From a virus: 34,056 nt of DNA. Within the stretch, counting starts at the first letter, position 1. Every line of letters begins with the position of its first letter. The stretch lies in IMG/VR virus record IMGVR_UViG_3300029775_000395, positions 1-34,056 of that record. One strand, written 5' to 3'. Positions 9,077 through 32,336 of this stretch are shown here, piece by piece. The notes below the pieces were generated by a model. It had not been told where the DNA came from. It saw only the letters and a list, made by a program, of their open reading frames with translations, and did no database searches. The position numbers and the translations under genes were made by a program.

Positions 9077-9168
9077 GGGGGCTCTGGTTCACAGCCGGGT
9101 TCCTGCTCGGGGTCGTCGCGACGGCGCTCGGGCTCCTGTGGATGATGGCGCTGGCGGTGGTCGCGTGA
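9073..9168 (+). CDS. 31-aa single-transmembrane peptide ([31 protein letters not shown])
   Basis: Hydrophobic; ATGA and GTGA overlaps. Confidence 0.55.
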   Translation: MRGLWFTAGFLLGVVATALGLLWMMALAVVA

Positions 9169-11564
9169 CCGGCAACGGCCTCGCCGCGCCGCCGTGGTGC
9201 CTCGGGTGCCCGTATCCGATCTACGACGACCGCAAAGGCGAGTGGGATTGGTACTGCCGGCAGCACTCGCCGACGGGGATCAAGTGCAGCAACGTCGCGG
9301 TGCTACCGCGTACAAGAATATTTCGCCCGCAAGGAGGCGACACAGTGAGTTCTATCGTGCTAAAAATACCAACCGAATCACAATCATTCCGCGCCGCGCT
9401 GACCGACGCGACGCTCCGGGATCGTGTCCAGGAGTGGATGGCCGCCGCTGTCGCGCTCGACGACGCGATCTACATCCCGCTCCGGACGGACTGGATGCCG
9501 AACGGCACCCGCCGCACCACCGACGGCGTGGAAGTGCTCCTCGCGGGCCGGTGGCCGCCGGAGGTTGTCGCGGAGCAGGGGCCCCGGATCAGCGGGGCTG
9601 TTTTCGGCCGGGTGTGGGAGATTGTGTGCGGCGCGAGCGGTTCTCCGGATTTTTCCGGTATAGCGACATGTGGTTCATATGAGGAAAACAACGAGCAATC
9701 GGAAAACAGCGGTCAGAATGAGGCGCCCGAGGTGGCGCAGAAGTCCGTATCGGACGAGCATGTTCTCCCCCAGAATCCAGTGGCGGACCATAAAACCCCG
9801 GATAGCGCAGTTGAGGAGATCTACCCCGAGGGGGAGATGGATCAGGATGCTCCGGCAGCACGGATTCTAAACGTCCCGGCCGAGGTGATCGAGCCGGTTA
9901 TCTCCGACGAGGTGATCGACGGGCTGACCCTCGACGCAGGAGGACTCGACGACCTCACGCGGACCGTCAAGACTCTGGAGCACTGCGGCGCGAAGTTCCC
10001 GCCGTGGTTCTGCGAGCAGCCCGTCGAGGTTGTCCGGGCAGGGCTCAAGGAGGCGGCCCGGTCCGAGAGGGTCATGCGAAGCTACCGCCTGGAGCGGGAG
10101 GATATCGAGAGGCGGCGGGCCGCGCTCGTGGCACAGTGGGCGATCGATGTCGGGGTAAGCCTCCCGGACCCTGAGCCGGCGATCGGGCTGGCATTCCCCT
10201 GCACTGACGACGGCAACGGGGATCGGCTCGTCGCGCAGTACCGGGACTCGATCCGGTTCTGCAAGACCTTCGATGCATGGTTTTTGTGGGACGGCTCGCG
10301 GTGGGAGCGCGATGAGACCTGCCGGATGCTGGCGCTCGCTAAGCGGGCCGCGAGGACGATCCACATCGAGGCGTCCGCGACCACGGACGACCGGCGCGAG
10401 AAGGTCGGGAAGTGGGCGCTCTCGTCGGGGATGCTCTCGCGACTCAAGGCCATGATCGCCTGCGCCTGCCCTGCGGTCGCGGTGACACCGGACGAGTTCG
10501 ACGCGCACCCGACGCTCTTGAACTGCCAGAACGGGACGCTCGAACTCGATACGCTGACGTTCCGGGAGGCGCGGCGGGAGGATCTCCTGACGAAGCAGGC
10601 CGGGGTTGCCTACGATCCCGCGGCGGCGTGCCCAACCTGGCTCGCACACCTGGACCTAGTGTTCGGCGAGGACACAGCCTATATCGAGGGGTTCCAGGAG
10701 CTCTGTGGGTATTCGCTGCTCCAGGAGAACCCTGAGCAGATTATGGCGATCCTCTACGGCATCGGGAAGAACGGTAAGAGCGTTACCATCGGGGCACTGG
10801 CGCGAGTATGGGGCGATTACGCAGTCAATATCGCCGCCGAGAGCCTGATGGTGCGCCGGAACGACGGCCCGCGCTCGGACCTGGCGCGGCTGCACGGCGC
10901 CCGGCTCGTCACGGCATCAGAGGGGGAGAGCCGGGCATCCCTCGCAGAGAGTGTGGTCAAGCAGATCACCGGCGACGACGCGATCACCGTCCGGCGGCTC
11001 TATGAAAATGAGTTCCAGTTCCGGCCCGGGGCGAAGATCTTCCTCGCGACGAATCACGAGCCCCGGATCAGGGGGACGGACGAGGGGATCTGGCGGCGGT
11101 TGTGGTTGCTGCCCTTCACTGTGACTATCCCCGAGGGGAAGCGCGACCCGGCCATCCTCGAACGGCTGGAAGCGGAGGGAGCCGGTATCCTGAACTGGTG
11201 CCTGGAAGGGCTCCGGCGGTATCAGGAGAACGACTGCCGTCTCGCGCCACCGGAGAAGGTGCTCGCGGCCACGGCCCGGTTCCGGTCGGAGAGTGATATG
11301 GTCGGGCGGTTCCTGGCGCAGGAGATGAAGACGGACCCGATGGGAACGATCGAGCGGACGGTGCTCTATAAGATCTACCTCAAGTGGTGCGAGGACGAGG
11401 GCGAAAAACCGGTCAGCAACCGGGCAGTGATCAAGTATCTCCGGGAGCGAGGGTTCGATGAGAGGAAGCTCGGCGGGGCCATGTGCTGGACGGGTATACG
11501 CATAAAGAGTGCTATCGAAGAGGAAGAAGATGCTACAGCGGGATCGGTACAGGGAGGTCTCTGA
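9165..11564 (+). CDS. P4/D5-type replication protein: D5_N, SF3 helicase and winged helix, with an unassigned N-terminus (alternative start GTG 9345)
   Basis: TDDGNGDRL...WFLWDGSRW (D5_N), GIGKNGKS (Walker A), RLVTASE (Walker B), ATNHEP (motif C), LYKIYLKWCEDEG (wHTH). Confidence 0.9.
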   Translation: MTGNGLAAPPWCLGCPYPIYDDRKGEWDWYCRQHSPTGIKCSNVAVLPRTRIFRPQGGDTVSSIVLKIPTESQSFRAALTDATLRDRVQEWMAAAVALDDAIYIPLRTDWMPNGTRRTTDGVEVLLAGRWPPEVVAEQGPRISGAVFGRVWEIVCGASGSPDFSGIATCGSYEENNEQSENSGQNEAPEVAQKSVSDEHVLPQNPVADHKTPDSAVEEIYPEGEMDQDAPAARILNVPAEVIEPVISDEVIDGLTLDAGGLDDLTRTVKTLEHCGAKFPPWFCEQPVEVVRAGLKEAARSERVMRSYRLEREDIERRRAALVAQWAIDVGVSLPDPEPAIGLAFPCTDDGNGDRLVAQYRDSIRFCKTFDAWFLWDGSRWERDETCRMLALAKRAARTIHIEASATTDDRREKVGKWALSSGMLSRLKAMIACACPAVAVTPDEFDAHPTLLNCQNGTLELDTLTFREARREDLLTKQAGVAYDPAAACPTWLAHLDLVFGEDTAYIEGFQELCGYSLLQENPEQIMAILYGIGKNGKSVTIGALARVWGDYAVNIAAESLMVRRNDGPRSDLARLHGARLVTASEGESRASLAESVVKQITGDDAITVRRLYENEFQFRPGAKIFLATNHEPRIRGTDEGIWRRLWLLPFTVTIPEGKRDPAILERLEAEGAGILNWCLEGLRRYQENDCRLAPPEKVLAATARFRSESDMVGRFLAQEMKTDPMGTIERTVLYKIYLKWCEDEGEKPVSNRAVIKYLRERGFDERKLGGAMCWTGIRIKSAIEEEEDATAGSVQGGL

Positions 11565-15102: not shown

Positions 15103-15528
15103 GTGCCTCGGACAAACGTCGGTGCGGCCGCGAAGACCTCCACGCGGAAACTGGAGATCGCCGAGCGCCGGGCCGAAGTGCTCCGGCTCCGGAAGCAGCG
15201 CGATCCCCGGCTATCCATCCGGGACATCGCAAAACGGCTTGAGATCCCCCGCTCGGTCGTCCACAGGGACCTGATGCACGAGATTGGGATTGCTCAGGCG
15301 AAGCGCACGATGCAGGCCGAGAAACTGATCGACATCGAGATCCGCGAGCTCGAATCCCTTCTCATCGAGGCGAAGCTCCATATTGAGAACGGGAGCGAGA
15401 CCTCGATCGACCGGGCGTTGAAGATCCTCGAATCCCGGCGGAAGCTCCTCGGCCTCGACGCGGCGCAGAAGGTCAATGTGAATGGCATCGCGGAACTCCA
15501 CTTCGATAAGGAAGACGAGGACCTATGA
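15103..15528 (+). CDS. terS: Terminase small subunit (HTH type)
   Basis: LSIRDIAKRLEIPRSVVHRD HTH; RRKLLGLDAAQKVNV tail; directly upstream of TerL. Confidence 0.75.
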   Translation: MPRTNVGAAAKTSTRKLEIAERRAEVLRLRKQRDPRLSIRDIAKRLEIPRSVVHRDLMHEIGIAQAKRTMQAEKLIDIEIRELESLLIEAKLHIENGSETSIDRALKILESRRKLLGLDAAQKVNVNGIAELHFDKEDEDL

Positions 15529-16772
15529 GCGGCATCAAGAAGACCCCCAAGCAGCGCCGCGCGATCGCCCTCATGACGGACCCGGAGATCCGCACCATTC
15601 TGCTCTCTGGGGGGTCCCGGTCCGGCAAGACGTTCATCGCCTGCTATGCCATCGCGGTCCGGGCACTCAAGGCCGCAGGCTCCCGGCACCTGATAACCCG
15701 ATTCCACTTCCGCGACGTCAAGAACGCGGTCGGACGAGACACGATGCCGAAGGTACTCAAACTCATCGGCACCCCGTACACCCTCGACCGAACGGACTGG
15801 TTTTTCACGCTCCCCAACGGCAGCGAGATCTGGCTCGGCGGGCTCGACGACGACGAGCGGGTCGAGAAGATCCTCGGCATGGAGTATGCGACGATCTACT
15901 ACAACGAGTCGTCCCAAATCTCTTACCACGCTTACACCACGGCGCAGACCCGTCTCGCGCAGAAGACGGATCTCGTGAACAGGGCATACGTGGACTGCAA
16001 CCCGCCGACCAAATCCCATTGGCTCTACAAACTCTTTCTGGAACACATCGACCCGGAGACCCGCGTCCCCGTCCCGAACCCGGACCGCTATGCTGTCCTC
16101 AACATGAATCCGATCGACAACCGGGAGAACCTGCCGGACGGCTACATCGAGGACACCCTCGCCGCTCTGCCGGAACGCAAGCGGCGCCGGTTCCTCGAAG
16201 GCGAGTGGCTCGACGACCCTGAAGGCGCACTATGGAAGCGGAGCATGATCGACGAGCACCGGCACGTCGGCGCTCCACCCCCCCTCGCCCGGATCGTCGT
16301 CGGCGTGGACCCCGCTGTCACCGGGAGCGAGACGAGCGACGAGACCGGGATCGTCGTCGTCGGGAAAGATGCAGCCGGCCACCTCTACGTGCTCGGTGAC
16401 TACTCTGTCCGGGGCACCCCCCTCGACTGGGCGAAGCGTGTTACCTGGGCCGTCGACAAGCACGGTGCGGATCGCGTGGTTGGGGAGACCAACAACGGGG
16501 GGGACCTCGTCGAGGTCAACCTCCGCACCGTCTCGAAAAACCTCCCGTTCAAGAAAGTCTCCGCGAGCCGGGGTAAGTACATCCGGGCCGAGCCGGTCGC
16601 CGCGCTCTACGAGAAGGGGGAGGTCCACCACGTCGGCGCGTTCCCCGAACTCGAAGATCAAATGTGTGAGTGGCTCCCCGGCGACGAGTCCCCTGACCGC
16701 ATGGACGCCCTCGTCTGGGCAATCACCGAACTCTCCGAACCCGTCGAGGAGTTCGCCTGTTATGCATTGTAG
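15525..16772 (+). CDS. terL: Terminase large subunit
   Basis: SGGSRSGKT (Walker A), IYYNE (Walker B), DCNPP, nuclease VGVDPA...DETG...DRMDA. Confidence 0.95.
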   Translation: MSGIKKTPKQRRAIALMTDPEIRTILLSGGSRSGKTFIACYAIAVRALKAAGSRHLITRFHFRDVKNAVGRDTMPKVLKLIGTPYTLDRTDWFFTLPNGSEIWLGGLDDDERVEKILGMEYATIYYNESSQISYHAYTTAQTRLAQKTDLVNRAYVDCNPPTKSHWLYKLFLEHIDPETRVPVPNPDRYAVLNMNPIDNRENLPDGYIEDTLAALPERKRRRFLEGEWLDDPEGALWKRSMIDEHRHVGAPPPLARIVVGVDPAVTGSETSDETGIVVVGKDAAGHLYVLGDYSVRGTPLDWAKRVTWAVDKHGADRVVGETNNGGDLVEVNLRTVSKNLPFKKVSASRGKYIRAEPVAALYEKGEVHHVGAFPELEDQMCEWLPGDESPDRMDALVWAITELSEPVEEFACYAL

Positions 16773-16779
16773 GAGGATC

Positions 16780-17130
16780 ATGACATACAGACAGAAACTC
16801 ATTGAAACACTCGCCCGGCTCCTCCGCGTCGAGCCCCCGGTCCGGCTCGTGCCGGAGATCCACGAGGTCCGGGTGCCGCGGCCGGCAGACCCGGTCGAGT
16901 ACGTCGAGACCCTGCACGACGCCCCGGACCGCGTCTACGTCTGGATCTGCAGAGAGGGCACGACCGACGACCAGATCGCAAGCATCGCCGAGAGGCTCAG
17001 TGAGAGAGATGGCAAGGCTCTGCATGTCGTCTGCCGGGACATCGCCGAGATCCGCAAACTCTCCCCGGAGGACGTCCGGCGACACCTCGCCCCGGTTGTG
17101 CAGCGAGCACAGGAGGCCGGATGGCAGTAA
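16780..17130 (+). CDS. Hypothetical protein between TerL and portal
   Basis: ATG 16780 after AGGAGG; 116 aa. Confidence 0.7.
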   Translation: MTYRQKLIETLARLLRVEPPVRLVPEIHEVRVPRPADPVEYVETLHDAPDRVYVWICREGTTDDQIASIAERLSERDGKALHVVCRDIAEIRKLSPEDVRRHLAPVVQRAQEAGWQ

Positions 17131-20100
17131 TCGCGCCAGGTATCAAGCAAGCCGGTGCCCGGGCACTCAACGGCGCCGGAACCCCGCGGGCGCTCGACCT
17201 CTCGCAGTCGATCTGGTATACTCCAGGGAGAGGCGTCCCGCGCTACGAGGACCTCTACACGATTCGGCGATTCTCCCGCTCGCACACCGTCTCTATCCCC
17301 ATGCTCGCGATCAAGGGGCAGGTGACGACGACTGAGTGGGGCGTGGTCCCGACCGTCGACGCCCCGACGAGCAAGCATTTCGCCGCCTGCGACGCCGTGG
17401 TCGATTTCCTTGACGGAGGTTTCTCGCGGAACCCAGCGACATTCGACACGCTGTGCAAGGAGGTCCTCGCCGATATCCTCACCATTGACGCAGGGGTGCT
17501 GGAGCTCGTGCCGGACTCGTCCGGATTCCTCCGCGAGATCTACGCCCGCGACGGAGCTACGTTCACGAAAAACCCCGACGAACACGGCATTCTTCCGGAC
17601 CCTGGCACCGGGACCCCGGCATACTACCAGGTCGGGGCGCAGGCATCGATCGCACAGGGCGCATTCGCCGCCGGGCTCCCGGGCATGTCGTCGGCAGCCT
17701 CGCTCCTCGACGCCCCGCTCTATCGGGCGATCACGCCGATCCCATTCTCCCGCGACCAGATCGTGTGGATCGAGGAGAACCCCTCGACGGACCGGCAGTA
17801 CGGGTGGAGCCGGGTGCAGATGGCGCACCGGCTCATCGAGATCCTGCTCAACCAGGACATATCGAATCTCAAGTACTTTCCGCAGAACGAGGTCCCGGAG
17901 GGCATCCTGAACCTCCCCGGCTTGTCAAACGACAACCTGACCCGGTTTCGGGAGTACTGGAAAGAGGAGATCGTCGGCAAGCCCCACAAACTCGCCTTGA
18001 TGAACTCCGCGGACGCCAACTGGATTCCGTTCCGGGCATCACCGAAAGAACTGGAGTTCCTCGCCTCGCAGGAGTGGTATAATAATCTCGTCTGGATGTG
18101 CTTCGGCGTCAGTGCCAACGAGGTCGGCTACGTGCAGGACGTCAACCGCAGCTGCTACAGCGAGGATACCGAGGTCCTCACCGAAAACGGCTGGAAGTTG
18201 CACCCGGACGTGGCGCCAGGAGAGCGGATCGTGGTCCACGACCTGGAGACAGGCGAGTGCCGCCTGGAGGTGCCCGGCCCCCTGCACGCGTATTATGCCG
18301 ATGAGGAACTGGTGAGGTTCGCGAACAACGGCCAAGACATCCTGGTCACACAGGAGCACACGATCCTCTACCGCGGCGGGAAAACGCAAAACAACACGCC
18401 GAGAGGGCCCCGCCCCAAGATCGTCCCCCGCGCCTGGAAAGTCGCGCCAGCAAAGGATCTGGTTGGCGCATCCCGCGTGAACGTCAAGAGTGGGGCGGAT
18501 GCGTGGGTCGGGGAAGACATGGAGATCTCCGATGACTACCTACGGTTCCTAGGATGGGCGATCGGCGAAGGCGGGCTGAGCAGCGTTCACCGTGCCATGG
18601 GGAAGAAGCGGAAGGTGCGGTCTGACCGTCTCCTAGGCTACTCTGTGATGACCCTGGCCCAGAGCAACAAGAGCTCGGAGAATGTGGCAGAGATCCGCCG
18701 GGTACTGAAAGCAGTCGGGGCGGAGTATCGGGAGTATCAGGACGTCCGTGACAACACCACGCGCTGGAATGTTTACGGCGACCAGCTGATAGAACCCCTG
18801 TTCGATAGCATCGGGGCCTACTGCGGCGAGAAGCGGATCCCGCGCCCGTGCCTGAACCTGCCGCCCGACAGGCTACGCCCCTTGTTCGAGGCCCTCATGG
18901 CTGGCGACGGCAGCTGGGACGCCCGGGAGAACCGCGCCTGCGGTTACTACTCCACCACCAGTCCGGGGCTCGCCGATGACATCCAGGAGCTCGCGTTCAA
19001 ACTGGGATATGGGACGAAACGGACGGTCCACTATGATGGCGACGGGCGGCGGCAGACATGCTACCGCATTCTCATCCGGGAAGACCACGAGAGGACGGTC
19101 TACCGCCCGCGGTTGGAGCCCTATACAGGATTTGTCTACTGTTTCTCCACCAGCACCGGATTCTACGTCACGCGAAGGAACGGGTGTGTCGCCGTTCAGG
19201 GGAACACCGCGCAGGAGCAGGCAGAAGCGGTCTGGCGGCGCACCACGGTCCCGCTCCTCGAGCTCCTCGCTGGCGCGATCAACCGCTCGATCCTCCCGTT
19301 CCTTGAAGAATACTGGGACGTCGGCGGGGAGATAGAGTTCCGGTGGGACCCGCACAACCCGATCATCGAGAAGCAGAAGCGGCTTGAGCAGGAGAGCGAC
19401 CTCCGGCTCGGCCTGTCCACCCCGAACCGCATCCTCGTCGAGCGCGGGGAGGAGCCGGTCCCGTGGGGCGACATGCCGCTCGCGCTCGTGGACTCCCTCG
19501 CCCGGATGCACCCGGAGTGGTTCGCCGGGGAACTCCTCGGGATGCCAAACGCCCCGGAGCCACTCTACGGCGGCGGGCTCCTGCTCTCCTCTCCAGACCC
19601 CGTGACGAAAGCCCTCGCCGACATCAAAGCGGCACCTGAGGACGAGCCGGAAGAATGGAAGAGCCGCATCGAGGCGCTGCACCGCCGGGTTTCTGGCGTG
19701 TTCGACGACGCCCTACAGAGCCTCCGGCCGGCAATCGAGGCGGCGTTCCCGGCGGAGCGGAGCGAGGACGGCGCGAAACCGCTCGTAGACCTCGACGCGG
19801 TCCTCGACCAGGTCGCGATCGCTGAGGACCTCCTCGCGGTCACCGCCGACCCTCGGGCCGATGCCCTCCGGCACGGGATTGATCTCGAATCCCGCCGGCT
19901 GGAGGGGGAACTCGAGTCCAGGGTCGGTAAGGGGCTCTACCGAGTCCACATCACCAAAGACTTCGACGTCACCCAGACCTTCGCCTACCGCCTCCTGCAG
20001 CAGCGTGCGGCGCGGAACATGCGGGGCGTCGAGGACTCGATCCGGGATCTCGTCCGCACCTCGCTCACCGGAGTGGTCGAGCGGGGCGGCAATGTCAGCG

Positions 20101-20669
20101 ACGCATGGCTGGCACTCCAGCGCGACGTCGCCGGCATGACGAGCGACCACGCCCGCCTCGTCGCGAGGACCGAGATCATGGGGGCGCAGCGCTACGGCAA
20201 GCAGGTGCTCGCCGAGGAGACGGAGCACCTGCTCAAGGGCAAGACCTGGCGCTCCCGCGGTATCAAGGGGCGGTCGAGAGAATGGCACACGGCGATGAAC
20301 AACGTCACCGTCGGCGTCCGCGAGTCGTGGACCGTCCCGGCAACCGGAGCAAAGGGGCAGCCGCGAGACTATCCCAAAACCTGCTACGTCGTCGGGGAGG
20401 ATCAGCCCTACAACTGCATGTGCGACCAGCGCCTGGCGCTCGCGGACGATCTCCCCGACACCGCGCAGGAACTCCGCTCCGTCAAGGGGTTGGCCCTCGA
20501 ACCGCTGACCAAACAGGCCGCCGTCCTGCTGGGGTATGGGCGGCCGCATGAATCGCTAAAAGACCTCCTCGTGAGGATGGAGACTATGAGCAAGAACCAG
20601 GCGGCCGAGCATCTCGGCATCAGCAAGGCCACCCTCTACGAGTGGCGGAAGTCAGAGGGGATTGAATGA
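17121..20669 (+). CDS. Portal protein interrupted by an intein and fused to a MuF/SPP1-gp7 head morphogenesis domain and a C-terminal HTH
   Basis: Portal: DILTIDAGVLE, YFPQNEVPEGIL, KELEFLASQEW. MuF: ARLVARTEI...KTW...REWH...PYNCMC. HTH: SKNQAAEHLGISKATLYEW. Confidence 0.88.
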   Translation: MAVIAPGIKQAGARALNGAGTPRALDLSQSIWYTPGRGVPRYEDLYTIRRFSRSHTVSIPMLAIKGQVTTTEWGVVPTVDAPTSKHFAACDAVVDFLDGGFSRNPATFDTLCKEVLADILTIDAGVLELVPDSSGFLREIYARDGATFTKNPDEHGILPDPGTGTPAYYQVGAQASIAQGAFAAGLPGMSSAASLLDAPLYRAITPIPFSRDQIVWIEENPSTDRQYGWSRVQMAHRLIEILLNQDISNLKYFPQNEVPEGILNLPGLSNDNLTRFREYWKEEIVGKPHKLALMNSADANWIPFRASPKELEFLASQEWYNNLVWMCFGVSANEVGYVQDVNRSCYSEDTEVLTENGWKLHPDVAPGERIVVHDLETGECRLEVPGPLHAYYADEELVRFANNGQDILVTQEHTILYRGGKTQNNTPRGPRPKIVPRAWKVAPAKDLVGASRVNVKSGADAWVGEDMEISDDYLRFLGWAIGEGGLSSVHRAMGKKRKVRSDRLLGYSVMTLAQSNKSSENVAEIRRVLKAVGAEYREYQDVRDNTTRWNVYGDQLIEPLFDSIGAYCGEKRIPRPCLNLPPDRLRPLFEALMAGDGSWDARENRACGYYSTTSPGLADDIQELAFKLGYGTKRTVHYDGDGRRQTCYRILIREDHERTVYRPRLEPYTGFVYCFSTSTGFYVTRRNGCVAVQGNTAQEQAEAVWRRTTVPLLELLAGAINRSILPFLEEYWDVGGEIEFRWDPHNPIIEKQKRLEQESDLRLGLSTPNRILVERGEEPVPWGDMPLALVDSLARMHPEWFAGELLGMPNAPEPLYGGGLLLSSPDPVTKALADIKAAPEDEPEEWKSRIEALHRRVSGVFDDALQSLRPAIEAAFPAERSEDGAKPLVDLDAVLDQVAIAEDLLAVTADPRADALRHGIDLESRRLEGELESRVGKGLYRVHITKDFDVTQTFAYRLLQQRAARNMRGVEDSIRDLVRTSLTGVVERGGNVSDAWLALQRDVAGMTSDHARLVARTEIMGAQRYGKQVLAEETEHLLKGKTWRSRGIKGRSREWHTAMNNVTVGVRESWTVPATGAKGQPRDYPKTCYVVGEDQPYNCMCDQRLALADDLPDTAQELRSVKGLALEPLTKQAAVLLGYGRPHESLKDLLVRMETMSKNQAAEHLGISKATLYEWRKSEGIE
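18153..19205 (+). other. Intein (351 aa) with LAGLIDADG homing endonuclease, within the portal gene
   Basis: Extein NRS|CYSEDTEVLTENGWK (block A); FLGWAIGEGGL and LFEALMAGDGSW (LAGLIDADG); VYCFSTSTGFYVTRRNGCVAVQGN|T (blocks F/G, Thr+1). Confidence 0.93.
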
Positions 20670-20748
20670 GTGCAGAGAAGTATGGCGCGGTCGGCGGCCA
20701 CCGACCGGACTGAACCCATCCCCTCAGACAGCAAATAGGTGATCAGAG

Positions 20749-21711
20749 ATGCCAGAACTGAAAACAAAATCCCTCGACGCGGCCCCCGGACAGGTGAAGG
20801 TCTGGAAGGCGCGCCTCGTCGAGAGCGGCCCTGAGGTGACGCTCATCCGCGTCCCGATCTCCTCCACTACCGAGGACCGGGACGGCGACGAGTTCTCCTC
20901 GGCCGGGCTGGAGAGCCTGCTCGCGGCCCTGAAAACCGGGAAAATTCCGTATTTCCTGGACCATGGGTTTACGGACACGGGGGTCAGGAACTACGGCGCG
21001 CTCGATATGATCGGAGCGTGGGTCAACGGCGAAGTCGAGGGCAATGTCCTGTATGGGACAGCGTTCATCGAGCCGGGAAATTGGCGTGGTGAGGAGCTGG
21101 CGCGAAAACTCGAGATGGGGATGCCGATCGGACACTCCGTTGGGTTTGGCGACATCAAGGGCCGCGACAAGCCGAATGGAGGGACGGTCTTCGACGAGGT
21201 CTCTCTCTGGGAGGTCTCCGCTGTCGGGATCCCCTCGAACCCCGACGCAGTGAACTCGGCTGCTGTGCAGGCGGTCGTGAAATCGCTCCGCGTGAAGGCG
21301 GGGCTGGAACCAGAAGACATGAAGCGCAAAACGAAGGAAACCGAAGAAGAGCGGTCCGAAGAGGAAGAGGAGGAGCAGAAGCAGACCCCTGAGACCTCCG
21401 AGGAAGAAGAGGAAAAACAGCCGGAGGAGGAGCCCCCTGAGGAAGACGAAGAGGACGATGAGGAGAAATCCTACGAGGTCCTCGACGAGGCGAAGCTCCG
21501 GACACTCATCGCCGAAGAGGTCGGCAAGGCGCTCGCCCCGATCACCGAGGCACTCAAGTCGCTCGCCGCCCTCGACGAGATCAAGACTGCCGTGACGAAG
21601 GCCGCCGCGACCCGAAGCAAGGGGCCGCGGGGGATCGTTGTCGCCCGCGAAGTCAAGGAACCGCAGAAGAACGAGACCCCGGCGGCGTCCCCCTACAAGC
21701 CGCTGTACTGA
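20749..21711 (+). CDS. HK97-family prohead protease with acidic scaffold-like C-terminus
   Basis: DRDGD, FLDH, GHSVGF, LWEVSAVGIPSNPDA, followed by a long Glu-rich tract. Confidence 0.9.
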   Translation: MPELKTKSLDAAPGQVKVWKARLVESGPEVTLIRVPISSTTEDRDGDEFSSAGLESLLAALKTGKIPYFLDHGFTDTGVRNYGALDMIGAWVNGEVEGNVLYGTAFIEPGNWRGEELARKLEMGMPIGHSVGFGDIKGRDKPNGGTVFDEVSLWEVSAVGIPSNPDAVNSAAVQAVVKSLRVKAGLEPEDMKRKTKETEEERSEEEEEEQKQTPETSEEEEEKQPEEEPPEEDEEDDEEKSYEVLDEAKLRTLIAEEVGKALAPITEALKSLAALDEIKTAVTKAAATRSKGPRGIVVAREVKEPQKNETPAASPYKPLY

Positions 21712-21723
21712 GAGCGATCAACT

Positions 21724-22878
21724 ATGATGACTGCAAAATCTATCTTTGGACTGAATGCCCGCGAGCAGATGTTCGACCACTTCTGGAAGAGCCAGGGGTT
21801 CCGCGCAGACAACGAGGGTCTGACCCCCTCTATTCAGAGTGCAATGCGCGACCCCGCGACCCGCGAGAAATTCAAGGGATTCCTGGGAAGAGCGTTCAAG
21901 GCGCAGATGGAGCCGGAGAGGGTGAAGGCAACCTCGACCACCGTTGCCAGCGCAATCCCGCTCGTATTCGACCCGGATGTGATCGACATCCTCCGCACCG
22001 ACGCCCCGCTCCTCGCCCGGCTCCCCATGCGCGGATACTCCGGTAACCCCGTTCGCGTGAACTGGATCTCTGCCCGTGCCGCCCCGGTGGGGATGGTCAA
22101 CGAAGCGACGGCGCTCACCCTGAACACGCAGGCGAGCAACGACTTCACGCTCTCCAACACGGACTACGACCACAAGATCTACGCCGACCGCGTGGACATC
22201 TCCGACTTCGCCGAGCGTGTCGCCGCAGATGGTCCCGTGAACGTCCGTGAGACCGCGCTCGGTGCCCGGATCAGCGAGTGGGCGCAGTTCAAGGAACAGC
22301 AGATCCTCTACGGCGACCACGCGCAGGCGCTCAACGATGGCTCGCCCGGTGACGCCAACGCCTTCGACGGTATGATCGTCGAGACTGCGGCCGGAAACAT
22401 TGTCGACAAGACAGCCGTCAACCTCGCGGACACGCAGGCACTCCTCAAGGATGTCAAGTCCGAGATCAAGAGCCTCCTCCAGACCCGCGGGATCTACAAG
22501 GGAGATCTCGAAATCTGGACCAGCCACACGCTCTTCGACGAGCTCGAAAACGAGCTCCAGACCCGGGCGATCCTCGATCAGAACACCTCCTCAGTGAACT
22601 TCGGTTACGAGGTGATCTATATCAGCGGCGTGCCGGTGATCGCGAGCCACAACGTCGACCAGCACACCTACGGCAACGGAGCCTACACGCCCGGTGATGA
22701 GGGAGACGTGTTCATCATGAACAAGCGCGCCAACGCCTTTGCGAGTCTCGCACCGCTCTTCACGGTCCCGCTCGGCCGCGCCGGTCTCGGGGACATGATG
22801 GCAATGGGCGAATACGGTACATATATCGACCGTGCTGGCGGCCAGATGAGCAAATATCTCCAGGCGTATGCAATCTAA
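21724..22878 (+). CDS. Major capsid protein (HK97 fold)
   Basis: Follows the protease; 384 aa; AIPLVFDPDVID...PLLARLP; QQILYGD...NAFDG; ISGVPVIAS. Confidence 0.88.
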   Translation: MMTAKSIFGLNAREQMFDHFWKSQGFRADNEGLTPSIQSAMRDPATREKFKGFLGRAFKAQMEPERVKATSTTVASAIPLVFDPDVIDILRTDAPLLARLPMRGYSGNPVRVNWISARAAPVGMVNEATALTLNTQASNDFTLSNTDYDHKIYADRVDISDFAERVAADGPVNVRETALGARISEWAQFKEQQILYGDHAQALNDGSPGDANAFDGMIVETAAGNIVDKTAVNLADTQALLKDVKSEIKSLLQTRGIYKGDLEIWTSHTLFDELENELQTRAILDQNTSSVNFGYEVIYISGVPVIASHNVDQHTYGNGAYTPGDEGDVFIMNKRANAFASLAPLFTVPLGRAGLGDMMAMGEYGTYIDRAGGQMSKYLQAYAI

Positions 22879-26597: not shown

Positions 26598-27569
26598 ATG
26601 ACAAGTAGATACCTACATGCAGCAAAAAGCCAGGTCTACTGGGGGGTGGAGGGGACGCCCTACACAGTCGCAGACCCCCTCGCCACCCCGTTCGGCCTGA
26701 TCCAGGGCGATATCGATTGGCCACAGGCGAACCCGAAAACCGCGGTCGCCGCATCCGGTCACCGGAGAGCGCCCTACGTGTACAGTAAGGACGAATACGA
26801 TCTCACGTTCTCGATCGCCTACCAGATCCTCGGGAAAGAGCAGCCGTTCGCGTGCTGTTTCGGCCCGCGGTCCAATGCGAACGGCACAGGATACACCGGC
26901 TACGACTGGACGGACGAGGACGGCACATCCGACATCCTCGGGACGATCTCCATCCGCCGGGACCAGACGGACACAATCCTGCAGGAGACGTACGTCGGGT
27001 GCAAGGCGGACCTGTCGCTCTCCGCCCGGGCCGGTGAACCGGTCGTCACCTCGCTCGATGTGGTCGCGGCACAGCGGATCCCGGTCACGAGCGGCACGCC
27101 GACCTATCCGACTCTGTCGATCCCGTCGGTCCAGCCGTATCGGTTCTGGATGCTCGGTGAGGTCACGATGGCCGACGGGTTGACGAAGACCCTCGCGACC
27201 GTGAACTCGTTCGACCTTCGGTGGGCAAATGGTCTTGCCGCCCGGCACCACGGCGGGGGGAGGAACGCCTACTCGATCGTCGAGGAGGAGGTCGCGAACC
27301 GCTACGACACGAAACTTGGGATCACAGTGGTCGACACGTCGCTCTACGCAGCCGCACTCGAGGACGCCGGCAGCATCGACGTGACGATCCCCCTCATCCG
27401 GGACGGAGCGGCATCGCTGGCGGTGTCGAAAGACGCGATGGTGATCTACCTCAACGACTGCGATATCCTGGACGCTCCGATCCCGACGAAAGAGGCCGGT
27501 GACGTCCAGGGCGATATCGTACTCGCGCCGAAGTCGACCAAGATCCATATCCGGGAGCCGACATCATGA
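26598..27569 (+). CDS. Major tail tube protein
   Basis: 323 aa, beta-rich; YVGCKADLSLSARAGEPVVTSL; precedes the chaperones and tape measure. Confidence 0.75.
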   Translation: MTSRYLHAAKSQVYWGVEGTPYTVADPLATPFGLIQGDIDWPQANPKTAVAASGHRRAPYVYSKDEYDLTFSIAYQILGKEQPFACCFGPRSNANGTGYTGYDWTDEDGTSDILGTISIRRDQTDTILQETYVGCKADLSLSARAGEPVVTSLDVVAAQRIPVTSGTPTYPTLSIPSVQPYRFWMLGEVTMADGLTKTLATVNSFDLRWANGLAARHHGGGRNAYSIVEEEVANRYDTKLGITVVDTSLYAAALEDAGSIDVTIPLIRDGAASLAVSKDAMVIYLNDCDILDAPIPTKEAGDVQGDIVLAPKSTKIHIREPTS

Positions 27570-29794: not shown

Positions 29795-30048
29795 CGCGAT
29801 TTATCGAGATACTCAAGACACAGACCGACGAGCAGATCGAACGCGGCGAACCGCAGGAGCAGATCCGGGTGAGGATCGCCGACGATCTGGAGGGCCCCGA
29901 GATCCTGACGTTGATCGACGCGCTCCGAACGCAGAGCGAGTGGGCTCCGGAGGAGGCCCCGGCACGGCTCCACATCTGCCGCCACGACGAGGTGCCGCCG
30001 CAGCCGTGCGAGCTCATCCCGGAAGACGTCCTCCGGGCGCAGGAGTGA
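29791..30048 (+). CDS. Hypothetical protein (85 aa)
   Basis: ATGA coupling; LHICRHDE...PC. Confidence 0.65.
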   Translation: MTRFIEILKTQTDEQIERGEPQEQIRVRIADDLEGPEILTLIDALRTQSEWAPEEAPARLHICRHDEVPPQPCELIPEDVLRAQE

Positions 30049-30050
30049 TC

Positions 30051-32336
30051 ATGCCGCCGGTGCCGCCGCCAGGATTCGAGCACGCCCAGGTCGTCCCGAT
30101 GCGGGTCGACCACTCGCGCATACAGGAGGCGCTGGAGGACTTCCCGGCGGCGCTGATCCTCTCGGCAACCAAGAAAACCCGGGCGCATCTCAGCGACCTC
30201 TTCTTCGAGATCTGGGACCGCCGCAAACAGATCGCGGTTGCCTTAGAGGACGGGACACAATGTTACGTCGAGATTAAGGAGTGGCAGCCGGAGCGGCTGT
30301 ATGCGGTCCTCTTCGTCCGGATTCCTGAGGTATCCTCGGACGCGGATACTCCGCTCTACCTTTGGTACTCTCGCACCGCGCCCGAAAACACCTCCTGTGT
30401 CGGGGATACCGGGGAACCGGCGGCGCAGCAGGTGTGGACGAACGGCTACGCGGGCGTGTGGATGAAGCCTTCCGGCGGGCTGCTGCTCGACTCGTCGCCG
30501 AACGCGAACCATGCGACGATCTACGGGGCGACGGAGACGGACGGCCCGCTCGGGGCGTGCTACTCGTATGATGGGGTGGATGATTACGGAGTTATCCCCG
30601 CATCGTCCACTCTTGATATGGGGGGGAAGAGTTTCTCGGTCCAAACATTATTCCGCATCGATCGAACTGTCGCGAGCGAGCGCCTGATCCTCGAACATGG
30701 GGTTTGGGCGGGCGCAGGGGTATATCAGCTGGCGAGTATGGGTAATGGGGACCTACGGTTCTTTGGCGTCGGAGATATCATCTACGCGGATTACCGTCCC
30801 GATTACGCCGGGGCGTGGCATGATGTCTGGGGGGTACTCGACCAACAGGCTGCTGCATCATACCTCTACTATGACGGGGGCGTCGGCACTGTTGCGCCGG
30901 GCAGTACGGGTATACCGAGCAGCGGAGCGGTTCTGACGTATCTCTGCTCCAGAGCAGGCGCCGGGTTATTTTTAGAATGTAATCTGGCACTCGTTTCGAT
31001 CTCCTCCACCCCCCGCTCCCCCGCCTGGATCGCCGCGACCAACCTCGCGCTCCGGGACGAGTTGATCGTCTACGACCCCCCGTCCCTCCCAGGGGGCGAC
31101 ACCGGGTCGATCTGGCACGCGGCGCATGGTAGTCTCGGCGAACTCGCGGGTGTGACTCGAATCCGAGTGCAGGACGCCTACTCGCGGTTCGCCCGGAAAG
31201 CGACCGTCGAGATCATCGATCCGGACGGTGCGATCGCCGCTGATACGCCGCGAGATACATCGATCCTGCTCTACGCCGCCCCGTCGCCCCGGAGCCCGCT
31301 ACAACTCCGGTTCGGCGGGTTTGTCGTCGACGTCCGGACAAACGAGAACGTCACGACGCTTGACCTCCTCTCGTACGACTTCTGGCTCAAGCGCCGCGTC
31401 GTCTATAAAACCTACACCGATACCGGGCTCCGGGACATCGCCCATGACCTCGTCACGACCCTGACCCCGCTCGTCTGGGACCCGGCACAGGTCGACCTCA
31501 CGAACGATATCGTGATCTCGCAGGTCTGGAAAGGCGAGGCGCTCGACTCCGTGCTCGCGGAGATTGCCGCGATGAGCAAATCGGAGGAGTGGGGGGCCGA
31601 CGACGAAGGCAAGTTCTTCTTCCGGGAGTGGGACGTCCGGACGAGTCGGCGCCATTTTACCGAAGGCTGGTACACCGATGCCCGGTTCGAGGAGGACGGG
31701 CGGATGGAGGTCAACCGGGTCGTGATCTATTACGGGCAGCCGCCGAACACCGGCGCGGTGGCCGTGCAGGACCTGGCGGCGCAACTCGCGCTCCAGAACC
31801 GGTACGGTGCGCCGCGCCCTGTGGTGATCGAGGTCGCCCGGACCTACCCGGAGATCACGACGGAGGAGGGTGCCCGCAACCGGGCGGCGGCGATCCTGGC
31901 GAACCGGACAGTGATCCGGACGGGGGAGATTGAGACCTGGGGCGCGGTCCGCGTCCGGCCGGGCGACGTCTGCGCCGTCCGGGTCCCCGACCAGAGGATC
32001 GATGGATCCTACCGGGTGGCGCAGATCGAGTACGCCTATCCAGAGGACCAGACCGTCGTAAAACTCGCGGAGAACAACGAGGGCGTGGTCGACGTCCTGG
32101 TCGAGCTCTCGGACGAGGTCTCACGAATCGATGCCCGGGACGCCGACCCGGACGCGACGCCCCTCGAGGTCGTCAACCTGCTCGAAGAGGTCGAGATCGA
32201 GACGGAACTCGCGGTCTACGTGATCCATGTCGCCGCGGGCGTGTTCCTGTTCGGCGAGCCGGGCGGCAACCTCGGCGATCCGCATGTGGGCGGCGGCGTG
32301 CTCGGTGACCCGGGCGGCAGGACGAGAGTGATCTGA
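30051..32336 (+). CDS. DUF2341 plus LamG (concanavalin A-like) domains fused to a baseplate hub/Tal-like minor tail protein
   Basis: DGTQCYVEIKEW...LFVRIP...LYLWY (DUF2341); GVW...DSSPNANHATIYG...YSYDGVDDYG (LamG_3); then RVQDAYSRFARKATVEI...FGGFV...FFFRE (hub-like). Confidence 0.72.
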   Translation: MPPVPPPGFEHAQVVPMRVDHSRIQEALEDFPAALILSATKKTRAHLSDLFFEIWDRRKQIAVALEDGTQCYVEIKEWQPERLYAVLFVRIPEVSSDADTPLYLWYSRTAPENTSCVGDTGEPAAQQVWTNGYAGVWMKPSGGLLLDSSPNANHATIYGATETDGPLGACYSYDGVDDYGVIPASSTLDMGGKSFSVQTLFRIDRTVASERLILEHGVWAGAGVYQLASMGNGDLRFFGVGDIIYADYRPDYAGAWHDVWGVLDQQAAASYLYYDGGVGTVAPGSTGIPSSGAVLTYLCSRAGAGLFLECNLALVSISSTPRSPAWIAATNLALRDELIVYDPPSLPGGDTGSIWHAAHGSLGELAGVTRIRVQDAYSRFARKATVEIIDPDGAIAADTPRDTSILLYAAPSPRSPLQLRFGGFVVDVRTNENVTTLDLLSYDFWLKRRVVYKTYTDTGLRDIAHDLVTTLTPLVWDPAQVDLTNDIVISQVWKGEALDSVLAEIAAMSKSEEWGADDEGKFFFREWDVRTSRRHFTEGWYTDARFEEDGRMEVNRVVIYYGQPPNTGAVAVQDLAAQLALQNRYGAPRPVVIEVARTYPEITTEEGARNRAAAILANRTVIRTGEIETWGAVRVRPGDVCAVRVPDQRIDGSYRVAQIEYAYPEDQTVVKLAENNEGVVDVLVELSDEVSRIDARDADPDATPLEVVNLLEEVEIETELAVYVIHVAAGVFLFGEPGGNLGDPHVGGGVLGDPGGRTRVI

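Follow-up and report, generated by a model that had tools for sequence, protein, structure and literature searches.

What is the tail that closes a fused portal-MuF protein, and what could it do inside a capsid? The question is raised by the IMG/VR provirus record IMGVR_UViG_3300029775_000395, whose 34,056 bases were analyzed in full (hereafter the window). A single open reading frame (ORF) on the plus strand, 17121 to 20669, runs for 1182 codons through a portal domain, an intein, a linker, a MuF region, a connector and a helix-turn-helix (HTH) domain without an internal stop. We identify it as the portal gene of a tailed provirus of haloarchaeal type, and the fusion as the 'Pormufvirus' kind known from earlier work. 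The fusion of portal and MuF is itself no discovery; what appears to be unreported is the HTH tail that an archaeal MuF clade conserves. The parts of the gene and of the encoded protein (aa, amino acids) are as follows.

17121..20669, plus strand: portal-MuF-HTH gene, single ORF, 1182 aa plus stop
17121..18152, plus strand: portal, N-extein, aa 1-344 (Phage_portal at aa 110-349; phrog_2662 portal, E 4.6e-36)
18153..19205, plus strand: LAGLIDADG homing-endonuclease intein, aa 345-695 (351 aa; Cys1, Gly-Asn end, Thr+1; LAGLIDADG_3, 28.2 bits)
19206..19568, plus strand: portal, C-extein, aa 696-816 (kept in all fused homologues; phrog_37955 portal at aa 760-788)
19569..19730, plus strand: portal-to-MuF linker, aa 817-870, acidic, GGGLLLSSPDP...
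19731..20450, plus strand: MuF/gp7-type head-morphogenesis region, aa 871-1110, long helices then core (phrog_2468, E 2.8e-13)
20451..20507, plus strand: connector, aa 1111-1129, short helix and strand (AlphaFold)
20508..20666, plus strand: four-helix HTH domain, aa 1130-1182, 53 residues (HTH_17; AlphaFold; structural neighbours)
20511..20537 and 20556..20585, plus strand: tail helices 1 and 2, aa 1131-1139 and aa 1146-1155 (AlphaFold)
20592..20615, plus strand: tail helix 3, positioning, aa 1158-1165 (AlphaFold)
20625..20654, plus strand: tail helix 4, recognition, aa 1169-1178 (AlphaFold)

Predicted fold of the C-terminal tail

When the last 78 residues were scanned separately, Pfam HTH_17 matched with 30.3 bits (cut-off 27, E 5e-7) and HTH_8 of the Fis family with 22.4 bits (cut-off 22), and further matches were found to HTH_Tnp_1_2, HTH_23 and HTH_28. 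In the scan of the full protein HTH_17 scored 22.9 bits, under its cut-off. The profiles HTH_23, HTH_Tnp_1_2, HTH_28, HTH_17, HTH_7 and HTH_Tnp_1 each match between 10 and 19 of 62 relatives. An AlphaFold2 model of aa 871-1182, built on a 59-sequence alignment, has a mean predicted local distance difference test score (pLDDT) of 95.5 and a predicted template modeling score (pTM) of 0.88, with pLDDT values of 91-98 in the four tail helices. The same four helices retain 93-96 when the tail is folded alone.

The structural neighbours of the tail point in the same direction. In a structure search, the DNA-bound DNA-binding domain (DBD) of NtrC4 superimposes on the tail with a root mean square deviation (rmsd) of 1.6 Å over 39 residues (28% identity), and a mycobacteriophage repressor-DNA complex with an rmsd of 2.0 Å over 41 residues. 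The NtrC1 DBD (32% identity) and Fis (29% identity) were found in the same search, and Tn3 resolvase, GcrA and VirB are additional neighbours. Foldseek placed Fis, NtrC1, DeoR, resolvase, lambda cII and 2ao9 at the top. A profile of ten tails searched against PDB sequences found HTH proteins only, the best being 2ao9 (E 0.005), a Bacillus cereus prophage protein and putative nonameric small terminase (PMC7672466). An ESM Atlas search with the tail gave no usable match. All sequence and structure matches of the tail are the same in kind, DNA-binding HTHs, and as modeled the tail is a genuine four-helix HTH domain.

The MuF region and the connector

The tail follows a region whose MuF character is clearer in its relatives than in the protein itself. 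Pfam Phage_Mu_F (PF04233) reaches 15.7 bits on the window protein, against a cut-off of 29.6, and is matched by 47 of the 62 aligned relatives (best 2.5e-16). It scores 42.9 bits on gp9 of HRTV-28 (Halorubrum tailed virus 28), the closest cultured relative for the fusion gene, which is 35% identical to the window protein (E 3e-54). Because of the phrog_2468 match, the PF04233 matches in relatives and the alignment to HRTV-28 gp9, we regard membership in the MuF family, by transitive homology, as secure. The core motif W...H...N-C-x-C (W1043, H1056, C1099 and C1101) is invariant in 59 sequences, and bacterial MuF matches terminate in the same NCRC motif. The MuF region is modeled with pLDDT values of 92-98. 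Searched against the PDB by Foldseek, the 312-aa model of MuF and tail, in which long helices dominate, gave no match below E 0.8, and VIA-align found no solved structural relative of the MuF core.

The connector between the two domains has pLDDT values of 96-98 in the 312-aa model, where it contains a strand (model residues 254-258), and 63-73 if it is folded without MuF. It probably packs on the MuF core.

Conservation and distribution of the tail

The segment L-G-I-S/G-K-A-T-L-Y-E-W is essentially invariant in 15 relatives, down to 48% identity. In 62 sequences, with identities as low as ~21%, conservation in the tail is highest at basic 1131 (97%), T1171 (94%), Y1173 (90%) and W1175 (97%), together with E1144, R1152, S1157, G1166, S1168 and K1169; basic 1131, R1152, S1157, K1169, T1171, Y1173 and W1175 are kept in 77-97%. 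The conserved polar and basic residues fall at the usual contact positions, S1157-[KR]1158, S1168-K1169, T1171 and Y1173. In the most distant comparisons at the DNA level, protein identity is 60-63% in the tail and 49% in the MuF core, and in 8 of the 10 comparisons different codons are used for 41-74% of the conserved tail residues. Since synonymous changes are abundant in the tail, it is the peptide that is under selection, and the conservation is not due to an overlapping nucleic-acid element (RNA or DNA). The tail is approximately neutral in charge; for the remainder of these proteins the median is -6.4 per 100 aa.

An exhaustive HMMER search with aa 871-1182 over 1.84 billion representatives returned 126 matches. 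Inspection of their printed C-termini showed that ~45 archaeal clusters (at the 50% identity level) hold the tail at the extreme C-terminus. Among them are both portal-fused proteins (800-920 aa) and MuF proteins that stand alone (313-404 aa). One standalone copy, of 359 aa, lies 5' of a tail-tube gene in the complete Halosimplex aquaticum chromosome, with an alignment that covers the MuF core and the tail (E 4e-14); PHROGs provided no annotation for the genes that flank it. The named sources of the relatives include Halobacteriales, Methanomicrobiales, metagenome-assembled genomes (MAGs) of Methanonatronarchaeia and an anaerobic digester. All bacterial MuF matches end shortly past the N-C-x-C motif, without the tail. 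A tblastn match to Streptococcus phage IPP25 at the tail coordinates was rejected because it is internal to a MuF protein of 526 aa and not a terminal HTH.

Since the tail is present on both fused and standalone MuF proteins, it belongs to the archaeal MuF clade and not to the fusion. The first-pass annotation of the window, made from the letters alone, had tied the HTH to the fusion with the portal, and in this respect it has to be revised. It had also read the extension as an HTH rather than a toxin, and here the profile and fold matches, the four helices at pLDDT 91-98, the retention of the tail in ~45 clusters and the lack of an immunity gene agree with it. The survey of MuF C-termini that it had proposed places the tail in the archaeal MuF clade, fused and standalone, and in neither the bacterial matches nor HSTV-1 (Haloarcula sinaiiensis tailed virus 1).

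The continuous frame, the intein and the linker

A word-indexed search found 27 proteins 48-90% identical to the window protein over its C-terminal 363 residues. Nearly all are ~830 aa long and uninterrupted, with the same C-terminus, and the homologue start MAV.APG.K coincides with residue 1 of the ORF. Because these 27 co-linear homologues and 29 related loci in IMG/VR keep the frame, it is real and under selection. The frame is open for a further 39 codons 5' of the ATG (open frame 1221 aa), and the homologues share the Met start.

Pfam Phage_portal (PF04860) matches aa 110-349 with 60.4 bits (cut-off 39.1) and resumes past the intein. The intein is a class 1 intein, with Cys1, a C-terminal Asn, a +1 nucleophile, an endonuclease domain and a precise absence in homologues: the ~830-aa homologues lack exactly aa 345-695, giving the extein join ...VNRS|TAQEQ... 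Judging from portal structures, the C-extein presumably ends in the portal crown region. The portal-to-MuF linker that follows has no domain match in Pfam or PHROG scans, and its length differs among relatives.

The first-pass annotation had thus read the architecture correctly. Its claim that no stop separates portal, MuF and HTH agrees with the open frame, the co-linear homologues and the single coding sequence (CDS) of HRTV-28, and the four units that it had counted (portal, intein, MuF and HTH) are real, by profile matches, intein boundaries, HTH_17 and AlphaFold. The position from which it had begun, 19206, is the first residue after the intein, and the motifs that it had quoted are in place (KTWRSRG at 20241, REWH at 20277, PYNCMC at 20406 and SKNQAAEH at 20589).

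Two relatives differ in length or continuity. A 1177-aa protein of a Methanomicrobiales MAG (P0031), 55% identical over MuF and tail, is ~350 aa above the usual fusion length, and its additional length may be its own intein or an insertion. The 90%-identity cluster of P0068 consists mostly of 869-aa fusions; in one Methanonatronarchaeia MAG contig the gene is split into 596 and 226 aa (P0157/P0158), which may reflect a frameshift, an error in assembly or a true division of the gene.

Known portal-MuF fusions and related systems

Haloarchaeal viruses are already known to have the fusion of portal and MuF. The annotation of HSTV-1 gp3 has read 'Portal (N-terminus) and Mu F-like (C-terminus)' since 2013, and that of HRTV-28 gp9 is 'portal protein; C-terminal region contains Mu gpF-like domain'. 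According to the S1 and S2 Tables of Liu et al. (2021), the HRTV-28 gp9 fusion (cluster PC_06175) is the source of the genus name Pormufvirus, and the tables list the fusion cluster in five halovirus families. Effector domains joined to MuF and to portal domains have also been described in bacteria (Iyer et al., 2017; PMC5512222). The first-pass annotation had stated that MuF proteins are normally separate. This is correct for most phages but overlooks the haloarchaeal viruses, and as the fusion is known there, it offers no argument for novelty.

HRTV-28 gp9 (Suolaviridae, MZ334528) is the closest match in organization. Like the window gene, it is one CDS with an N-terminal portal and a C-terminal Mu gpF-like region, and it ends in the same tail (S-K-S-G-V-V-D-D-L-G-M-S-K-T-T-V-G-K-W). 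It is 35-36% identical over MuF and tail and aligned to the last residues, and its gene order, TerS-TerL-...-portal/MuF-protease-MCP (MCP, major capsid protein), is as in the window. It differs in having no intein and a long extra insertion in the portal-MuF linker: in gp9 (L001:3262-6681) the portal Pfam match extends to aa 439 and MuF begins at aa 917, leaving several hundred extra residues by inspection. This extra sequence is low-complexity and Cys-rich with no Pfam match, and may be cargo inserted in the linker. An HTH is mentioned neither in the HRTV-28 record nor in the searchable text of its paper. HSTV-1 gp3 shares the portal/Mu F-like fusion with the window protein, but stops ~20 acidic residues past the CxC and has no HTH tail.

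The functional precedents come from two bacterial phages. Staphylococcus phage 80alpha gp44 has a MuF domain (Phage_Mu_F, 47.2 bits), and gp44 and Bacillus phage SPP1 gp7 share with the window protein a portal-adjacent gene and portal-mediated recruitment (via the crown in 80alpha). Both consist of a helical N-terminal part followed by a small C-terminal DNA-binding region (PMC7290940, PMC12889711, PMC6316719). SPP1 gp7 binds DNA, is targeted by the portal to the procapsid interior and is needed for full infectivity (PMC6316719). 80alpha gp44 attaches non-specifically to blunt DNA ends and shields them from exonuclease, activities mapped to its C-terminal 60 residues (PMC7290940), and its incorporation depends on the last residues of the portal crown (PMC12889711). 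Unlike the window protein, gp44 and gp7 are separate proteins, present in 1-2 copies and ejected, and the DNA-binding end of gp44 is a Lys/Arg-rich tail rather than an HTH. No pairwise similarity between either of them and the window protein was detectable outside the Pfam profile. The idea that an HTH replaces the basic tail as an adaptation to high salt is weakened by the relatives from Methanomicrobiales and an anaerobic digester. Given gp44, a DNA-binding extension is not the departure from known MuF proteins that it had been taken for, since the precedent is experimental (PMC7290940).

Gene neighbourhood

The provirus record is estimated to be 88% complete, with a G+C content of 54-68%. 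The portal-MuF-HTH gene is placed after the terminase large subunit (TerL) gene and before the protease and MCP genes, as portal genes are. Its surroundings are as follows.

1-1224: tyrosine integrase
9138-11564: D5-type primase-helicase
15103..15528, plus strand: small-terminase-like HTH protein, 141 aa (HTH_IclR and HTH_23 matches)
15525..16772, plus strand: terminase large subunit (Terminase_6N, Terminase_6C; phrog_979, E 3.8e-74)
20749..21711, plus strand: prohead protease with scaffold-like C-terminal part (weak Peptidase_S78; phrog_80 head maturation protease)
21724..22878, plus strand: major capsid protein (phrog_25898 major head protein, E 5.6e-18)
26598-27569: tail tube
29940-32336: LamG-bearing tail protein

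The 141-aa small-terminase-like gene lies immediately 5' of TerL and overlaps it; the possibility that the tail is a paralogue of this protein was rejected (BLASTP E 8). A 348-nucleotide (nt) gap (16773-17120) separates the TerL stop from the portal start. The prohead protease gene starts 80 nt 3' of the fusion gene, and its orthologue in the related locus L006 matches Peptidase_S78 with 26.1 bits.

The 3' end of the tail-coding sequence is variable in its surroundings. In relatives, 1.7-4.3 kb of additional genes, beginning at an ATGA stop/start overlap, lie between the portal-MuF-HTH gene and the protease gene: an uncharacterised 567-aa gene in L008 (L008:5663-7625), and four genes in L006 (L006:9546-13784), one of which carries a Phage_tail_APC domain (fibre assembly chaperone). 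The window (20666-20748) and the near-identical locus L005 have only a 15-codon remnant (ATG at 20666) that can be aligned to the start of the inserted gene. Small ORFs of 57-85 aa (L008:7428-7625, which encodes P0097; also P0080, P0088 and P0091) duplicate the HTH tail in their last 35 residues, with the joint '...IADDLL|(L/R)RME...' fusing MuF aa ~905 to aa ~1150. Since the tail remnant in L008 sits past the inserted gene, the 3' end of the tail-coding sequence seems to be a recombination junction for cassette exchange. A hairpin across the stop codon (20655-20725) has a stem, GAGGGGAU / AUCCCCUC, formed by the final codons of the gene and the intergenic region around an inner GC hairpin. 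Its predicted energy is -31 kcal/mol (z -1.2), and it is shared only with L005.

Possible roles of the tail

On balance, we lean toward the tail being the DNA-binding module of an internal head protein, an analogue of the C-terminal domain of 80alpha gp44 located at the portal crown. After removal of the intein, the spliced protein would form a dodecameric portal, with a ring of up to 12 MuF-HTH modules at the channel mouth. The modules would be inside the head because the portal C-terminus faces the capsid interior, and the figure of 12 copies per virion given in the first-pass annotation is a fair inference from portal stoichiometry. The HTH would bind the packaged genome with little sequence specificity, probably at or near the DNA end, and could hold or protect this end and support the start of infection, like 80alpha gp44 and SPP1 gp7. 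In such an arrangement the fusion would put a peptide bond in place of the non-covalent crown-MuF contact of 80alpha, and the HTH where gp44 has its Lys/Arg-rich tail. Any proteolytic release would likely occur in the variable portal-MuF linker and not at the MuF-HTH junction.

Several observations weigh against this role. The positions of the tail that presumably match the two basic DNA contacts in the Fis recognition helix are Tyr and Glu. In the model, the tail packs rigidly against MuF (pTM 0.88). A portal-fused protein cannot leave the capsid uncut, while gp7 and gp44 are ejected, and the analogy may therefore be incomplete. The fold matches are weak singly (Z 4-5, Foldseek E >0.3). Low Z scores are due to the small size of the domain, and with matches this weak, as expected at ~45 residues, the similarity is to HTHs in general. 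In addition, a few close relatives, HSTV-1 gp3 and the MuF protein of Halorubrum lacusprofundi virus DL1 end soon after the N-C-x-C motif, without the tail.

A more elaborate proposal, which we hold only tentatively, is that twelve HTHs form a ring on the portal's inner face, comparable within the capsid to the HTH ring that small terminases form, and grip the genome end at the channel mouth. Such a grip may be, for example, part of headful sensing, a retention clamp or a release gate for ejection. The best neighbours of the tail are small-terminase HTHs (2ao9; SF6/G20c type) and the C-terminal HTHs of Fis and NtrC (HTH_8, HTH_Tnp_1_2), and the fusion would, as in small terminases, display HTHs on a ring-shaped oligomer. 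These matches are marginal, however (E 0.005; Z 4-5), and the tail would be inside the capsid and not on the packaging motor.

It is also conceivable, though we consider it unlikely, that the tail is part of a pilot or regulator that is released: the linker would be cleaved by the prohead protease or another protease, and MuF-HTH, or the HTH alone, would be ejected with the DNA. The released part may act in the new host on DNA ends, in protection or circularisation, or as a regulator of early genes. In favour of this, homologues of gp7 and gp44 act as ejection proteins (PMC7290940, PMC12889711), the gene just downstream encodes a prohead protease, the linker varies and in HRTV-28 accommodates a large insertion, and the standalone MuF-HTH forms could eject freely. 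However, no cleavage site is identifiable. Release of the HTH alone is improbable because the connector, predicted at pLDDT 96-98 with a strand, loses this confidence without MuF, and the earlier suggestion of an HTH cleaved off and delivered as a regulator is disfavoured by this predicted rigidity. Viruses with dissimilar early regions carry a generic and nearly unchanging tail, a pattern more in keeping with non-specific binding than with recognition of an operator.

Slightly less probable still, in our view, is a structural cap, in which an HTH-like bundle contacts the portal crown, the scaffold, the terminase or a neighbouring MuF instead of DNA. The pTM of 0.88 and the confident prediction of the connector speak for a single compact unit, the basic run typical of Fis and NtrC is missing from the recognition helix, and the net charge of the tail is only about zero. 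On the other hand, the pattern of conserved residues is the classic one of DNA-binding HTHs, S-[KR] ... G-[IV]-S-K-x-T-[LV]-Y-x-W, the sequence and structure neighbours are all DNA binders, and the MuF relatives bind DNA via their C-terminal part.

We find it very hard to see the tail as the HTH-fold head of a MuF polymorphic toxin ('Tox-HTH'; Zhang et al., 2012) that would be delivered to a competitor or host. Toxins of this MuF class (Jamet et al., 2017; Zhang et al., 2012) do resemble the window protein in carrying a C-terminal extension on MuF beside the portal, and an HTH-fold toxin domain, with archaea in its range, is among the MuF cargo (Zhang et al., 2012; PMC3482391). The reading fails because the tail is not polymorphic, an immunity gene is absent and the Tox-HTH motif was not recognised by inspection. 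The tail is the most conserved part of the protein rather than the most variable; no small immunity-like gene lies downstream, where the window has the protease gene and relatives have large uncharacterised or fibre-like/fibre-chaperone genes. By motif inspection the window tail has no RxxY of the Tox-HTH motif (RxxY, R, [ST]), and Pfam scans gave no match to a toxin family. A sequencing or assembly error merging separate portal, MuF and HTH genes can practically be dismissed, despite the gene split into 596 and 226 aa in one MAG of the 90% cluster, given the single frame in dozens of independent contigs and a cultured virus genome and conservation that is unbroken across the junctions.

Implications

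MuF proteins are encoded by about one third of tailed phages (Jamet et al., 2017). Their core function is vague, and the best data, on gp7 and gp44, indicate DNA-end binding by an ill-defined C-terminal region. An archaeal MuF clade with a confidently folded HTH, including the cultured HRTV-28, provides a concrete and mutable putative DNA-binding module. In the fused form its stoichiometry and its position at the portal crown would be fixed, and the module should therefore be visible by cryo-EM. The practical gain is modest, a change of annotation from 'portal' to portal-MuF-HTH. If the proposed ring of HTHs on the inner face of the portal is correct, the standalone MuF-HTH proteins would do the same job at lower copy number, and the MuF family would gain a defined DNA-handling mechanism in archaeal viruses.

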